Positions 741-7,060 are shown, numbered from the stretch's first letter. The stretch: DNA of 11,810 nt from a virus (IMGVR_UViG_2778261375_000004); one strand, 5' to 3'. The notes: generated by a model from the sequence alone, not told the origin. Numbers and translations: made by a program.

Positions 741-2744
741 TTAACGAACCAGATGCAGGAAGTGCAGGTGTTTTTCGTACTGGTCCAGTATGTCATTAAT
801 CAGCTGTTCCTGATTCCAGCCCATTACATCATAATTTTGGCCGCCCTCTTTGAGATAGACTTCAGCGCGATAATATCGATGTTGTTCACTCTGCTGCTCA
901 TCATTATCCAGCGCAGCGAGCGCGAAGGTCGGTGAGTTATACCCGCGAAGCCTCACTTCATATATATAATTCAGCTCGTTGCCCAAATCGACTTCAAGGC
1001 GAATACGATCCTCGGCGGCGTCACTGATGTGGCTTATCGTTCCCTGCTTGTTAAGTTCCTCCTGAACCAGCGTCATGGCGGGTTGGATAATGTCGTCCAT
1101 AAAACGTTTCACAAGAGAGCGCTTCGGCAAATACGCGATATTGCGTAACCTTCTCTGCCAGGGAATTGGGTTACGTGCAGCCGTAGGAGCAATAGTCGCC
1201 ATGCTAAGGCTTTCACGCTTGGTCAAATCCCGACGCAGGGCTTTTAACAGTCCGTATATGGATATTAATAAGATAACTGAGAAGGGCAATGCACTCGCTA
1301 TCGTTACGGTTTGCAACGCACTCAGCCCCCCTGCGATCAGCAGGGCAATAGCAACAACGCCCATGAGCGATGCCCAGAAAATTCGCTGCCAGACGGGCGT
1401 GTTTGCCACCCCACCTGATGCCAGAGTATCCACAACCATTGCCCCCGAATCAGCAGACGTTACAAAGAAGACGATGACCATCGCCATTGCAATGAATGAC
1501 AGCACGGAAGAGAACGGGAAATGCTCCAGGAAATTAAACAGGGCAAGCGCAACATCCTGCTGAACGGTATTGGCGAGGTCAGTGGCGCCCTGGTTCATGA
1601 TGAGATAGATGGCGCTGTTTCCAAACACCGTCATCCACATGAGCGTAAAGCCGGCGGGAACAAACAACACGCCAGTCACGAACTCACGAATTGTCCTGCC
1701 GCGGGAAACGCGTGCAATGAACATACCTACAAACGGCGACCATGAAAGCCACCATCCCCAGTATAATAATGTCCAGCCCCCCAGCCAGTTGCTCGACTTG
1801 GGTTCATACGCGTAAAGGTTGAACGTTTTACTCACCAGTTCCGACAGATAACCACCCGTATTTTCCACAAATGACTTCAGCAGAAGCACAGTGGGACCCA
1901 GGCACAAGACCAGCGCCAGGAGCAACACCGCCAGGCCCAGATTAAGCTCAGACAGGATGCGTATTCCCTTGTCCAGGCCGGACACCACCGAAATCGTCGC
2001 TAACCCCGTGATGACCACGATCAAAATGACCTGTACCGTTTCATTGATGGGCACGCCGAAAAGATGGTTCAAACCGGCATTCACCTGCAATACACCGTAA
2101 CCCAGTGATGTTGCAACGCCAAAGACAGTGCCTATCACGGCGAAGATATCAACCGCGTGGCCTATAGGCCCGTAAATGCGATCGCCGATAATGGGATAGA
2201 GCGCAGAACGCAGCGTTAAAGGCAGACCGTGACGGTAACTGAAAAAGGCCAGAATCAGCGCCACGATGGCATAAATTGCCCATGCGTGCAGACCCCAGTG
2301 GAAGAACGTCAGGCGCATGGCTTCCTTCGCTGCCGCAACGGTCTCTGGAGTGCCGACAGGTGGCGAAAGATAATGCATCACAGGTTCGGCAACGCCAAAG
2401 AACATCAGGCCGATCCCCATCCCTGCCGAAAAAAGCATCGCGAACCAGGAGTGGTAGCTGAAATCAGGCTGCGCATGGTCTGGGCCCAGCTTTATATCAC
2501 CGTAACGTGAGAGTCCAAGGAACGTGACGCTCAGTAAAATCAGGGCCACAGCAAGTATGTAGAACCAGCTGGCATTCGTGAAGATTTGTTGCTGAAGTAG
2601 TTTAAAATTTTTGTCGGCGACATCCGGGAATACGGCGGCAAAGGCGACAAGAAGGAAAATTAGCAAAGCAGATGTAAAGAATACCGCTTTGTTAATCTGG
2701 CTTGTAGACTTCTTTGGGGTTGTATCATTTTCACTCATAATCAT
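741..2744 (-). CDS. betU: BCCT-family (betaine/carnitine/choline) osmolyte transporter, BetU-like
   Basis: 667-aa polytopic membrane protein with the BCCT signature region WTLLYWGWWLSWSPFVGMFIARVSRGRTIREF and clear collinearity with my recollection of E. coli BetT. Length and context match the BetU paralogue recalled from uropathogenic E. coli; the symbol is tentative. Two adjacent ATG starts (2744, 2738). Confidence 0.85.
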   Translation of the reverse strand: MIMSENDTTPKKSTSQINKAVFFTSALLIFLLVAFAAVFPDVADKNFKLLQQQIFTNASWFYILAVALILLSVTFLGLSRYGDIKLGPDHAQPDFSYHSWFAMLFSAGMGIGLMFFGVAEPVMHYLSPPVGTPETVAAAKEAMRLTFFHWGLHAWAIYAIVALILAFFSYRHGLPLTLRSALYPIIGDRIYGPIGHAVDIFAVIGTVFGVATSLGYGVLQVNAGLNHLFGVPINETVQVILIVVITGLATISVVSGLDKGIRILSELNLGLAVLLLALVLCLGPTVLLLKSFVENTGGYLSELVSKTFNLYAYEPKSSNWLGGWTLLYWGWWLSWSPFVGMFIARVSRGRTIREFVTGVLFVPAGFTLMWMTVFGNSAIYLIMNQGATDLANTVQQDVALALFNFLEHFPFSSVLSFIAMAMVIVFFVTSADSGAMVVDTLASGGVANTPVWQRIFWASLMGVVAIALLIAGGLSALQTVTIASALPFSVILLISIYGLLKALRRDLTKRESLSMATIAPTAARNPIPWQRRLRNIAYLPKRSLVKRFMDDIIQPAMTLVQEELNKQGTISHISDAAEDRIRLEVDLGNELNYIYEVRLRGYNSPTFALAALDNDEQQSEQHRYYRAEVYLKEGGQNYDVMGWNQEQLINDILDQYEKHLHFLHLVR

Positions 2745-3078: not shown

Positions 3079-3501
3079 TCACTTCAATAAATACCGAACA
3101 TCCCCCTGATAAAACGACAATATGCGCTGCATAACTTCGCTCTTCCGGCACTCGCGACAGATTATGTTTAGGCGACTGTCGTAGCGACGTATTTCTCCGT
3201 CAGGTAATGACCAGATAAGGTCCGGATCAACCACAACCGGTTTCTTCAGCTTTGCCCTCGATAATTTTTTGCGGGCATTTTGCCAGTCTTTACGAGCCTG
3301 TTCAGACGGGAATAACCCGTAGCCAGAATTGTATACATCGCCACTGGCAACCAGCTCTCTGGCCAGAACGCTCATCAGATATCTTGTTGCCCCAGTTTTA
3401 GCTTCCAGTTGTCGTAACGTCTCGCGCCCACTCTGGCGTACGAGTTCAAGAACCTGCCCTTTAATTTTTTCCCGCTCTTCTTGTGTAAAAACTTTTGCCA
3501 C
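3079..3501 (-). CDS. hypothetical prophage protein (140 aa), possible winged-helix DNA-binding segment
   Basis: GTG start at 3499-3501 preceded by a perfect AGGAGG Shine-Dalgarno 4 nt upstream on the minus strand. It is the last gene of the minus-strand replication operon. No family recognised; residues ETLRQLEAKTGATRYLMSVLAREL look HTH-like. Confidence 0.55.
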   Translation of the reverse strand: MAKVFTQEEREKIKGQVLELVRQSGRETLRQLEAKTGATRYLMSVLARELVASGDVYNSGYGLFPSEQARKDWQNARKKLSRAKLKKPVVVDPDLIWSLPDGEIRRYDSRLNIICRECRKSEVMQRILSFYQGDVRYLLK

Positions 3502-3541: not shown

Positions 3542-4612
3542 TTACCCCCTGAAGCCCGGCGGAATTTCGTTATCCGGTTCAGAAATATGATTCACACAAC
3601 GCTGGTTGTTCGTGCCGCTTACCGGGAGCAACCAGGGGTTCTCAAAATTCCGGTCCGGTCCAAAAAACGTCGTCGCTCGCTGAACAAATTCCGTTCCCGT
3701 TTTCCCGGTAGCCGCCAAGTATCTTGCGTAACGCCTCACGCCATCCAGCATGGCCTCTGGTGGCACCCCCTCGCGTAATCTGGCCTTCCAGGCACTGAAA
3801 GCGGATTTCTTCGGGTTTGCCCCAGCACGCAACGGGTACTCCCGCCAGACCTGTTCGAACACATCCGGATAATCCACTCGTCCCACAGACTGCCCGGTGT
3901 TTTCCGGGACTACCCGATCGGCTTCCCGCTGAATGGCGGAATCGGCTTCAGGCTGCTGCAGTTGGTGTGATTGCTCCGCCCTTGCGGTCATCACCTGCTG
4001 CACAGCGCCCGAATCGGCTTTCAGCGCATACGCTGAATCGGCTTCCGGTGTCGTGCCTGCTGGCTGACCAAGATTGACGGTCTGAACATCCCCTGCCTGG
4101 TTCGTGGCGTTTTTTACGCCATGGACCATAGTGTTTTGATCTTCTTGATCTGTATCTTTATCTGTATCTTTATCTGTCGTGACTCGTCGTGACATGTGCG
4201 TGACATTTCGTGACGCGCCGTGACAATCGCCATTTTGTTCCCGCTTTCTTTCCCTCTCTCGCTGCGCCCTCTTGCGCTCTGCAGGAGATTTTGCGGTTTG
4301 CGAAATATTGCCGTTGTCCTCTTTAAGCACCTGGCGTTTTTCCCATCCAGTGATTAAATCACCATCAAGTACCCGCCCCTGCATCGTCTGCAAAATTGAA
4401 TCAATTACCTCTTCTGTCACGTCGAGCGCACTTGCCAAATCTTCTGTCGTGACATCAATGTGACCTCGCGTGACATTTCGTGACGCGCTCACCAGGAGGT
4501 GGATATACACTGCCATCACTGTTGCAATTGGCTGCCCTGACACCCTGGCAATTGTTCGCCACTTAGGGTCATTTGGCATGTCATGCCATAATCTGAGCCA
4601 GGCGTTAGCCAT
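3542..4612 (-). CDS. Prophage replication initiator with DnaT-like C-terminal domain (YdaU-type)
   Basis: The C-terminus ...FGPDRNFENPWLLPVSGTNNQRCVNHISEPDNEIPPGFRG matches the C-terminal end of E. coli primosomal protein DnaT (...SEPDSQIPPGFRG) as recalled. Start taken as ATG 4610-4612 with AAGAGG 5 nt upstream; the track start GTG 4618 lies inside that RBS. Gene position corresponds to ydaU of Rac. Confidence 0.8.
   Translation of the reverse strand: MANAWLRLWHDMPNDPKWRTIARVSGQPIATVMAVYIHLLVSASRNVTRGHIDVTTEDLASALDVTEEVIDSILQTMQGRVLDGDLITGWEKRQVLKEDNGNISQTAKSPAERKRAQRERERKREQNGDCHGASRNVTHMSRRVTTDKDTDKDTDQEDQNTMVHGVKNATNQAGDVQTVNLGQPAGTTPEADSAYALKADSGAVQQVMTARAEQSHQLQQPEADSAIQREADRVVPENTGQSVGRVDYPDVFEQVWREYPLRAGANPKKSAFSAWKARLREGVPPEAMLDGVRRYARYLAATGKTGTEFVQRATTFFGPDRNFENPWLLPVSGTNNQRCVNHISEPDNEIPPGFRG
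4148..4224. repeat. Iteron-like array I: 12-bp AT-rich tandem repeat followed by five helically phased CGTGAC hexamers
   Basis: ATCTGTATCTTT at 4148-4159 and 4160-4171, partial third copy to 4183. CGTGAC at 4178, 4188, 4199, 4209, 4219 (spacing 10, 11, 10, 10 bp). Lies inside the replication-initiator CDS. Confidence 0.6.
4415..4487. repeat. Iteron-like array II: phased CGTGAC/TGTGAC hexamers plus one inverted copy
   Basis: GTCACG (inverted) at 4415-4420; CGTGAC at 4447, 4468, 4478 and TGTGAC at 4458 (spacing 11, 10, 10 bp). The 21-mer GCGTGACATTTCGTGACGCGC is identical at 4198-4218 and 4467-4487. Confidence 0.55.
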
Positions 4613-4683: not shown

Positions 4684-5109
4684 TCAATGCACAGCCACAA
4701 TATTTCCTGCAGGGCCACCACGATTCATCTGGTTGAAACCAGCGATCGCCACTGCGACAAAATCATCAGCGTCTCTCACCAGTCGTTCCCGCGTCTCCAC
4801 TAGTTCCCGAAAATAGGCTGAGCTATGGCTGCGCATTCGGGCCACCAGCAGAGGTGGCATTGCTTTTTCGATAGCTGGTAACAACGCCTGAATTTTTTCA
4901 ACTGCATCAGGGGTGTCTTTCTCTACCCAGCGGAAAATTTTCTGGGTATTGCGAGCCAGGGCTTCCGGATGGCTGTCGTCATACAGTTCTGGGAACGTCA
5001 TACCCAGTTCAAAATAAGCCCTGGTTATTTCAGCTGCCGGAACTTTTTCACCGTCCGGATGCGCCCAGGCATTCATCGCCATGCGGATGTGTTCATGCTT
5101 GATTTTCAT
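4684..5109 (-). CDS. YdaT-like protein (CII-analogue / formerly annotated toxin family)
   Basis: 141 aa, start ATG 5107-5109 with AGGAG 8 nt upstream. N-terminus MKIKHEHI... and position (between the Cro-like gene and the replication initiator) correspond to ydaT of Rac-type prophages as recalled. Confidence 0.6.
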   Translation of the reverse strand: MKIKHEHIRMAMNAWAHPDGEKVPAAEITRAYFELGMTFPELYDDSHPEALARNTQKIFRWVEKDTPDAVEKIQALLPAIEKAMPPLLVARMRSHSSAYFRELVETRERLVRDADDFVAVAIAGFNQMNRGGPAGNIVAVH

Positions 5110-5374
5110 GAATCAAGCTCCTAGAAAGTGGTTGTGTTAACATTTTGGTATCTTCCAGCTCGGGCCAAATATTCATCCAATCAAAAGGCCTTAGTTGCTG
5201 ACGTGTAACTTCACCATTACTGGCTCGCTCAATAAGGACACATAACGATGCCCCTAACACTTGACCTTTACTCAATGCCTTTCTTAGATAACCGATGCTG
5301 GTACCACACTCGCATGCAAACATACGCTGTTCATCTGACGAAAGAGAATTGAGAAATATTCTTAATTCTTCCAT
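5093..5374 (-). CDS. Cro-like HTH regulator (YdaS family)
   Basis: 93 aa, ATG 5372-5374 with AAGGAG 5 nt upstream. Transcribed divergently from the repressor. The segment ...ERASNGEVTRQQLRPFDW resembles the YdaS/Cro-like family as recalled. Overlaps the next gene by 17 bp. Confidence 0.65.
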   Translation of the reverse strand: MEELRIFLNSLSSDEQRMFACECGTSIGYLRKALSKGQVLGASLCVLIERASNGEVTRQQLRPFDWMNIWPELEDTKMLTQPLSRSLIHENQA

Positions 5375-5474: not shown

Positions 5475-5894
5475 ATGGACAAATATGAATTTAGACGACA
5501 GCAACTCATCAAAATTCGTGATGAGAAATGCGATGGTAAAGCGGTTAACGTGGCCAGAAAGATCGGGCGCGAGCCTTCTTATGTATCAAGAATGTTGTAC
5601 CCAGAGGGGAAAAAGGGAAAAAAACGGATCGCTGATGATATGGTGGAGATTATCGAAGAGTCCTTTGGGTTACCCCGGGGATGGATGGATGGTATCGTTT
5701 CATCATCAACGAACACAGCCTCCAGTTATGAAACAAGGGTTCTAACGCCACGACAACGTATTTTTTTAGATCTCTTAGACGAACTGCCAGAAAGTGAAGC
5801 GGATAACTTATTAAAAACTCTTGAAGAGAAAAAACAGTATTACAATATGATCTACGAAGAAATCCGTAAAAAGAAAGCACAAAACGCATCATAG
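5475..5894 (+). CDS. Prophage CI-type repressor (HTH, no peptidase S24 domain; DicA/RacR-like architecture)
   Basis: 139 aa; N-terminal HTH (GKAVNVARKIGREPSYVSRML); C-terminal region resembles the dimerisation region of DicA as recalled. Divergent from the Cro-like gene. No SD upstream of the ATG, consistent with a leaderless mRNA. Confidence 0.75.
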   Translation: MDKYEFRRQQLIKIRDEKCDGKAVNVARKIGREPSYVSRMLYPEGKKGKKRIADDMVEIIEESFGLPRGWMDGIVSSSTNTASSYETRVLTPRQRIFLDLLDELPESEADNLLKTLEEKKQYYNMIYEEIRKKKAQNAS

Positions 5895-7002: not shown

Positions 7003-7060
7003 TTTCTGGTGACGTTTGGCGGTATCAGTTTTACTCCGTGACTGCTCTGCCGCCCTTTTT
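7003..7060 (+). ncRNA. dicF: DicF small regulatory RNA (cell-division/ftsZ-targeting sRNA of lambdoid prophages)
   Basis: TTTCTGGTGACGTTTGGCGGTATCAGTTTTACTCCGTGACTGCTCTGCCGCCCTTTTT matches the DicF sequence as I recall it. It ends in an intrinsic terminator (interrupted GGCGG...CCGCC stem plus T5 at 7056-7060) and sits between ydfC-like and dicB as in Qin. The 5' end is approximate (RNase-processed in vivo). Confidence 0.7.

Follow-up and report, generated by a model that had tools for sequence, protein, structure and literature searches.

Phased hexamer arrays inside the initiator gene of a lambdoid (Qin/Rac-like) prophage probably form its replication origin

The stretch of viral DNA analyzed here (IMGVR_UViG_2778261375_000004, 11,810 nucleotides, hereafter the window) carries a gene for a phage replication initiator in which two arrays of a short, regularly spaced hexamer are combined with an AT-rich tract and a palindrome. 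We consider it probable that these elements, located between positions 4098 and 4484, constitute the iteron origin that a lambdoid (Qin/Rac-like) prophage carries within the gene for its initiator. A preliminary description of this DNA had proposed a prophage origin at this place, and the comparison of homologues presented below supports that proposal; binding of the initiator and firing of the origin are what we infer from it. The relevant features are the following:

3542-4612, minus strand: initiator gene, 356 aa, ATG at 4612 (open reading frame and translation)
4322-4612, minus strand: N-terminal winged-helix domain, aa 1-97, presumed to bind the iterons
4448-4484, minus strand: iteron cluster II, three GTCACG and one GTCACA (coding strand), spacing 11/10/10 bp, encoding aa 43-56
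4416-4421, plus strand: single inverted hexamer, in the codons D-V-T
4178-4224, minus strand: iteron cluster I, five GTCACG (coding strand), spacing 10/10/11/10 bp, encoding aa 130-146
4130-4177, no strand assigned: AT-rich tract, (GATAAA/GATACA)n, purine-rich on the coding strand, encoding DKDTDKDTDQEDQ, candidate DNA unwinding element
4098-4128, no strand assigned: palindrome with 13-bp arms just past the AT tract, encoding NTMVHGVKNAT
3623-3880, minus strand: folded C-terminal domain, aa 245-330 (AlphaFold2 pLDDT 83-95), presumed module for recruitment of helicase or loader
3545-3616, minus strand: C-terminal tail, aa 333-356, a copy of the C-terminal tail of host DnaT
5475-5894, plus strand: DicA-like repressor gene
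5093-5374, minus strand: cro/YdaS-like gene
4684-5109, minus strand: CII/YdaT-like gene
3079-3501, minus strand: DUF977/Ren-like gene, downstream of the initiator gene

The neighborhood of the initiator gene is a lambdoid early region, to the right of which DicF, a RecE-like exonuclease and an integrase are encoded. In NCBI, the initiator bears the name "phage replisome organizer"; among the PHROG families it matches phrog_3729, "replication initiation protein" (2e-257), with additional weak matches to replisome organizer families, and the whole protein retrieves no Pfam family at E<=0.01. The isolated phages vB_EcoS-689R5 and Tritos encode the initiator at 99-100% identity, and a 1.4-kb stretch here recurs with 96-99.5% identity in seven E. 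coli phage records, these two among them. Of 5426 complete E. coli genomes, 2036 contain the origin region, always annotated as coding sequence alone, and the O157:H7 prophages contain a close variant of the origin module. A scan for promoters and terminators between 3000 and 5600 yielded counts that did not exceed those for shuffled sequences.

Iteron origins can be recognized by at least three short direct sites that are concentrated in a compact region beyond chance, by an AT-rich region adjoining these sites, and by sites that are conserved as DNA and co-vary with the initiator. With regard to the first property, the gene contains nine direct copies in two arrays. Read on the plus strand, the CGTGAC copies of cluster I start at 4178, 4188, 4199, 4209 and 4219, exactly as described previously, and those of cluster II at 4448, 4469 and 4479, with the variant TGTGAC at 4459; the cluster II positions reported earlier (4447/4458/4468/4478) were all one base too low. 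An exact 21-bp duplication between the clusters (GCGTGACATTTCGTGACGCGC) is real, and it connects 4198-4218 with 4468-4488, not with 4467-4487. The original count of nine copies is right for the direct copies including the variant, and the inverted copy that had been numbered among them is in fact a tenth. In the direction of the gene, cluster II (nt 129-165) is followed by a spacer of ~225 nt, cluster I (nt 389-435), the AT tract and the palindrome. Tandem Repeats Finder reports a 10-bp array at 4176-4225. CGTGAC occurs 13 times in the window as compared with 4.5 +/- 2.1 expected copies, none of 200 shuffles reaches 13, and nine of the 13 copies are packed into ~310 bp. The complete 46-kb Tritos genome gives the same picture: nine of its 25 GTCACG/CGTGAC sites reside in ~300 bp of the initiator gene and there is no other cluster. 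The window shuffles and the Tritos count together rule out a chance origin of the clustering. The inverted hexamer at 4416-4421 is possibly an accessory site. An inverted copy is found at gene nt 192 in 13 of the 23 homologues of the GTCACG class and somewhere in nt 170-260 in 14 of the 23, and the Val codon GTG at this site is invariant despite being four-fold degenerate; the status of this copy is nonetheless uncertain because it is absent from the CGAACG class.

The AT-rich region adjoining the sites is likewise present. Between 4130 and 4177 the AT content is 71%, compared with 46% across the gene, and the AT-rich 12-bp tandem repeat that had been noticed beside cluster I is recovered by Tandem Repeats Finder at 4143-4177 (2.9 copies, 95% matches). 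Averaged over 45 homologues, AT content is 63% in the 45 nt that follow the final hexamer of cluster I, versus 44-46% upstream and in the region coding for the N-domain (Wilcoxon p ~4e-9). The tract is usually read as (C)AGATAAAGATAAAGA in homologues, and its AGATAAAGATA motif recurs even in GC-rich hosts. The tract is a candidate unwinding element. The palindrome beyond it folds as single-stranded DNA with -10.9 kcal/mol (z -5.4), and its inverted repeat is kept in four relatives with 46-51% protein identity, traveling with the type of C-domain and not with the type of N-domain. It is possibly a third origin element, for which constraint at the DNA level and at the peptide level are not separated.

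A comparison of homologues with regard to phasing at synonymous positions, as had been suggested in the preliminary description, clearly favors an origin. In Escherichia, Aeromonas, Pseudomonas, Bordetella and other hosts, the hexamer itself, its 10-11 bp phasing and the AT tract downstream are all preserved at such positions. A tblastn search retrieved N-domain relatives with ~67% identity in Aeromonas and Pseudomonas phages, in which GTCAC(G) occurs at matching gene positions (~129/139/149/160 and ~389/399/409/419). The survey was then based on one genome per species and comprised 59 loci; Gamma-, Beta- and Alphaproteobacteria are represented along with a few other phyla. The dominant hexamer of each locus was taken from a census of NNNACG, as a search for the best-phased 6-mer is confounded by the (GATAAA)n tract. 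Neighboring copies are separated by 10 or 11 bp in 186 of 240 cases and by 20-22 bp in 14 more. Cluster I is the most widely conserved element and is present even in homologues that have no cluster II. As for cluster II, 41 of 56 homologues at species level have three or more copies of the dominant hexamer at the matching gene position (nt ~129-160), and about eight lack the cluster. In three homologues (L113, L115 and L125) that retain the protein and the AT tract, hexamer-like motifs number only one or two and do not form a phased array. From these loci and from the homologues devoid of cluster II it follows that the full array is not obligatory.

The arrays could alternatively be regulatory binding sites of the initiator, serving autorepression, a transcriptional roadblock or copy control by handcuffing, with the origin residing elsewhere. 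Iteron plasmids do use extra iterons for control, and such a role would fit cluster II in particular, which is situated ~130 nt into the gene, far away from the AT tract, and which about eight homologues with a cluster I do not possess; its absence from these homologues implies that it is dispensable for whatever cluster I does. We nevertheless consider this reading improbable, as the conserved AT-rich tract always directly follows cluster I, which is a classic origin signature, the complete Tritos genome offers no other hexamer cluster to serve as origin, and the layout matches in-gene origins that have been proven experimentally. A weaker form, in which cluster II alone is regulatory, is compatible with the arrays being part of an origin.

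The third property, conservation of the sites as DNA together with co-variation with the initiator, is also found. At least two copies in each cluster are present in 49 of the 59 loci, and for 43 of these 49 the dominant NNNACG hexamer is identical in both clusters (GTCACG 23, CGAACG 10, GTAACG 5, GCAACG 3, GTGACG 2), with discordance in the remaining six. None of 10,000 label permutations reaches 43; since this test ignores phylogeny, the weight rests on about five independent switches, each of which hit both clusters. The element from a Ralstonia phage, for instance, has GCAACG at nt 130/140/151/161 and 401/411/421/431, and that from an uncultured phage has CGAACG at 122/134/144 and 312/333/343/353/363. 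Short hexamers can in principle be read by many DNA-binding proteins, and the binder might accordingly be a host factor or the product of a neighboring phage gene (CII/YdaT-like, DUF977), acting for example in transcription control or exclusion. This appears very improbable to us: the neighbors vary across the Escherichia, Aeromonas, Pseudomonas and Ralstonia elements whereas the arrays remain tied to the N-domain, the hexamer changes in both clusters along with the initiator lineage, and the only gene that is always linked to the arrays is the one containing them. Moreover, an identical hexamer is shared by very different hosts and several hexamers exist within a single host genus (Pseudomonas). 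The distribution of the hexamers over hosts and the linkage of arrays and gene speak for a binder encoded by the phage and against a host factor.

The constraint on the hexamers acts at the level of DNA and not of the peptide. The copies occupy three reading frames (GCG TCA CG / GTC ACG / G GTC AC / T GTC ACG) and consequently encode different residues, namely SR, VT, GH and CH. When synonymous codons were resampled 20,000 times with the protein sequence fixed, 0.69 GTCACG were expected and five were the maximum, as opposed to the eight that are observed and that none of the resamplings reached; the peptide thus does not account for the array. Across 25 genes of the GTCACG class, third-position entropy amounts to 0.16 bits at the 13 synonymous sites inside hexamers versus 1.16 bits at the 89 sites outside (Mann-Whitney p 1.3e-7), and homologues that keep the peptide and scramble the hexamers at synonymous sites were not found. 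The repeats do encode a repeated peptide, as pointed out earlier (ASRNVT at aa 43-48 and 133-138, VTT at aa 54-56 and 144-146), they are located in a loop and in disordered sequence, both of which can accumulate repeats, and their copy number varies, in steps of 21 bp corresponding to two iterons or seven codons. Among the natural variants are genes with a cluster II enlarged by 21 bp (two iterons, 7 aa) and one, P0019, that is devoid of cluster I and the AT tract. The notion that the repeats are nothing but a repeated peptide or low-complexity coding sequence made by slippage, lacking any function as DNA, has a negligible probability and is rejected on the grounds of the reading frames, the nearly frozen synonymous sites and the 0.7 hexamers predicted by the peptide, all the more as the conserved period of 10-11 bp cannot be divided by three and the architecture is kept across lineages that differ in the peptide.

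The AlphaFold2 model of the initiator (overall pLDDT 63) comprises a confidently predicted N-domain (aa 1-97), helical with a beta hairpin, a basic helix (aa 110-126), a disordered region (aa 128-244) and a confidently predicted C-domain (aa 245-330). By fold, the N-domain matches winged helices like the N-terminal domain of DnaD and plasmid RepA (4pta_D). A profile of 22 N-domains identified no solved relative by sequence, and at E<=10 the only Pfam matches were HTH_Crp_2, DFF-C and Phage_rep_org_N. Cluster II codes for the end of helix 29-45, loop 46-55, where pLDDT dips, and the first residue of helix 56-63, and cluster I for the start of the disordered linker (aa 130-146). Both arrays thus sit where the protein tolerates what the DNA dictates. 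At the opposite end, the tail QRCVNHISEPDNEIPPGFRG aligns to the tail of DnaT (6aep_A, E 0.003). Matches in the PDB are confined to the last 21-24 residues, and the match to the NCBIfam model for DnaT (NF002770) reaches 19.2 bits (cut-off 201) and covers model positions 156-179 only, so that the earlier designation of the whole initiator as DnaT-like applies to no more than its last ~20-24 residues. A binding partner of the DnaT C-terminal tail was not found in the preprimosome paper.

From this arrangement we infer roles for the initiator, the AT tract, the helicase machinery and cluster II as follows. The winged-helix N-domain would bind GTCACG in head-to-tail order on a single helical face with a period of 10-11 bp, at five sites in the linker-coding cluster I and at four in cluster II, which lies upstream in the gene at a distance of ~230 bp. 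A nucleoprotein complex formed in this way, similar to the O-some of lambda, may destabilize the adjoining (GATAAA/GATACA)n tract, whereupon the C-terminal domain and the DnaT-like tail would bring in the host helicase machinery, the window copy having no phage loader gene downstream. Cluster I and the AT tract would form the core of the origin, and cluster II would be accessory or enhancing, possibly connected to cluster I by DNA looping. The searchable literature, to which most subscription journals do not belong, contained neither binding or replication experiments on this initiator family nor a description of these iterons or of replisome organizer origins in E. coli prophages.

The N-domain, the iterons and the AT tract form a single unit in recombination and are combined with various C-domains and downstream partners, the latter being lambda-P-like in O157:H7, DnaC/IstB-like, DnaB-like or missing. 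The C-domain present in the window occurs without a loader gene in the window and in Tritos and elsewhere with a DnaC/IstB-like ATPase as partner. In O157:H7, a DnaT-type ssDNA-binding C-domain (PF17948) is combined with "replication protein P" and with 6 + 5 hexamers. Other C-domains are found in Aeromonas and Ralstonia, where the partner is a replicative helicase, and in Pseudomonas phage phi1, where it is a 609-aa gene product annotated as "replication protein P". Conversely, the C-domain of the window and the segment coding for the palindrome are joined elsewhere to quite different N-domains, and such genes have two phased clusters of their own, ~250 bp apart. One of them contains AAGGGGCTT, with copies at nt 184/195 and 440/451/462, and in another the repeats are of the AAGCCTT type and located at nt 187/199 and 451-487. 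Such cases suggest that origins of this bipartite in-gene type are common in the group.

It is conceivable that the loop encoded by cluster II (aa 43-56), which lies between the first and second helices of the winged helix around the invariant R49-G50, helps to read the hexamer, such that a change of the iterons alters their reader. Inspected by eye, the putative recognition helix and wing, which were assigned from secondary structure, exhibit no convincing class-specific residues, and the coupling of loop and reader would explain at once why clusters and protein switched together at least five times and why such residues are lacking. Together with a second, independent proposition, namely that the bipartite in-gene origin is a general design, we regard this as improbable.

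An origin inside a gene is an already familiar design; that of this very common E. coli phage family is unannotated in the records inspected, where the gene is labeled as hypothetical protein, phage replisome organizer or DnaT-like protein. A known origin with its cognate hexamer would provide a handle on the induction and replication of prophages, including elements that lie beside virulence cargo. The roughly five specificity classes offer a natural set for studying co-evolution of initiator and origin with the origin inside the initiator's own reading frame, and they are candidates for orthogonal origin/initiator pairs for vectors in Proteobacteria. In addition, an overlapping DNA code can strongly fix synonymous sites, and this must be allowed for in selection analyses of phage genes.

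Of the known systems, DnaT shares with the initiator the nearly identical last ~20 residues, and in sister proteins the ssDNA-binding domain of DnaT, PF17948, substitutes for the C-domain found in the window. The rest of the initiator is unrelated to DnaT, which functions with PriA and PriB in structure-specific restart and not in sequence-specific recognition of an origin (PMC13377028).

The origin of lambda lies in the middle of O and consists of iterons, which are ~19-bp imperfect inverted repeats, plus a region rich in AT that unwinds; the number of iterons varies between lambdoid/Stx phages and adds residues to O, whose N-terminal part reads the origin and whose C-terminal part couples to the helicase-loading partner (PMC7466680). 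Here, too, all elements are located inside the initiator coding sequence (3542-4612), repeats precede the AT-rich region in the direction of transcription, an N-terminal part goes with the origin and a C-terminal part with the helicase partner, and a variable number of iterons adds residues. The order of repressor, cro, cII-like gene and initiator is also that of lambda. Like the locus described here, ori-lambda has a palindrome beyond the AT tract. The parallel with ori-lambda that was drawn at the outset therefore stands with respect to an origin within the gene and to the position of cluster I in the inter-domain linker. It fails for cluster II, which lies in a loop of the DNA-binding domain, and for the repeats themselves, which are direct, 6-7 bp in length and spaced at 10-11 bp and do not resemble 19-bp inverted repeats. 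Unlike in ori-lambda, there are two clusters ~230 bp apart, one of them inside the region coding for the DNA-binding domain, the initiator exhibits no detectable sequence relation to lambda O, and the window copy is followed by the DUF977 (Ren-like) gene in place of P. Since these defining features, and for DnaT a match beyond the tail, were looked for and are lacking, the locus is not a member of the lambda O or the DnaT family.

Origins of SaPIs, which are phage-related islands, contain two sets of short iterons around an AT-rich region. The locus shares with plasmid and SaPI iteron origins the short direct initiator sites, the adjoining AT-rich region, iterons that are specific for the element and a winged-helix initiator domain. 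It differs from both in that the whole origin is initiator coding sequence and from SaPIs in that the AT tract flanks cluster I on one side and does not separate the clusters.

The oriL of phage SPP1 spans ~356 bp within gene 38 and combines repeated boxes that are bound by gp38 with an AT-rich DUE (PMC6316719, PMC5737612). In-gene origins related to it are known in phages of Gram-positive bacteria. The locus in the window differs from SPP1 with its oriR in that the 46-kb Tritos genome has no second hexamer cluster, that genes for a helicase loader or helicase do not adjoin the window copy and that the hosts are Proteobacteria. What it has in common with SPP1 is the embedding of origin repeats and a candidate DUE in an organizer gene, the NCBI name of the protein and an N-domain resembling the winged helix of the DnaD N-terminal domain. 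This domain matches Phage_rep_org_N (PF09681) with 13 bits, below the threshold of 23.3, and membership in the SPP1-type replisome organizer family, albeit below the model threshold, is plausible.

The arrays of the proposed iteron origin vary between initiator genes. An initiator variant from E. coli (P0019) is devoid of the segment that codes for hexamer cluster I and the adjoining AT-rich tract, and its prophage would be unable to fire its own origin if the origin model is true. A homologous locus from a metagenome-assembled genome assigned to the Pseudomonadota (L135) carries discordant hexamers, CGAACG in cluster II versus GTGACG in cluster I, and may be a recombinant between specificity classes, which differ in their dominant hexamer. 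Three further homologous loci (L113, L115 and L125) retain the N-domain together with a long (GATAAA)n tract; a phased array is absent from them, hexamer-like motifs occur only once or twice, and they may represent a minimal or decayed origin. The initiators of loci L152 and L153 share the C-domain of the window's protein and differ from it in their N-domains. Each of the two genes contains two phased repeat clusters of its own (L152:1384-1676 and L153:1387-1710), about 250 bp apart, with AAGGGGCTT repeats at a period of 11 bp or AAGCCTT-type repeats at a period of 12 bp.

The AT-rich tract carries two Dam methylation sites at its far end:
4138-4141, GATC
4147-4150, GATC
Many enterobacterial relatives have GATC(T)AAA at the equivalent place, and firing might be coupled to methylation or to SeqA through these sites.

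The coding region for the disordered linker of the initiator (3930-4050) contains short repeats of its own:
4011-4020, exact copy of GAATCGGCTT(C)
4035-4044, exact copy of GAATCGGCTT(C)
Another copy, recognised by eye only, is located upstream. The repeats encode a repeated EADSA peptide, and the natural initiator variants P0002 and P0004 have in-frame deletions within the same coding region.

At its C-terminal end the initiator nearly duplicates the corresponding tail of host DnaT:
3545-3616, minus strand, DnaT-like tail (amino acids 333-356)
When aligned, the end of the initiator, …SEPDNEIPPGFRG, and the host DnaT tail are near-identical, a resemblance by which the phage protein may mimic a host primosome contact. 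The binding partner of the DnaT tail is not stated in the preprimosome paper.

Two further features lie elsewhere in the window:
741-2744, minus strand, BCCT-family transporter gene (667 aa)
7004-7055, plus strand, DicF antisense sRNA (match to Rfam RF00039 at 76.7 bits, where the gathering score is 48)
Left of the early region (1-2744), the transporter gene and IS-related sequence occupy the place of the nin/Q/lysis genes of related phages, and the prophage seems to be truncated or rearranged here. The same block is present in about 440 E. coli genomes. DicF is consistent with the Qin-like dicB/ydfD neighbourhood of related phages.

Directly after the initiator follows:
3079-3501, minus strand, DUF977/Ren-like gene
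This arrangement, with no helicase loader, is common to the window and phage Tritos, and in close relatives (loci compared: L147-L150, L151, L152, L153 and L154) a gene for a DnaC/IstB-like ATPase or a lambda-P-like gene takes the position of the DUF977/Ren-like gene.
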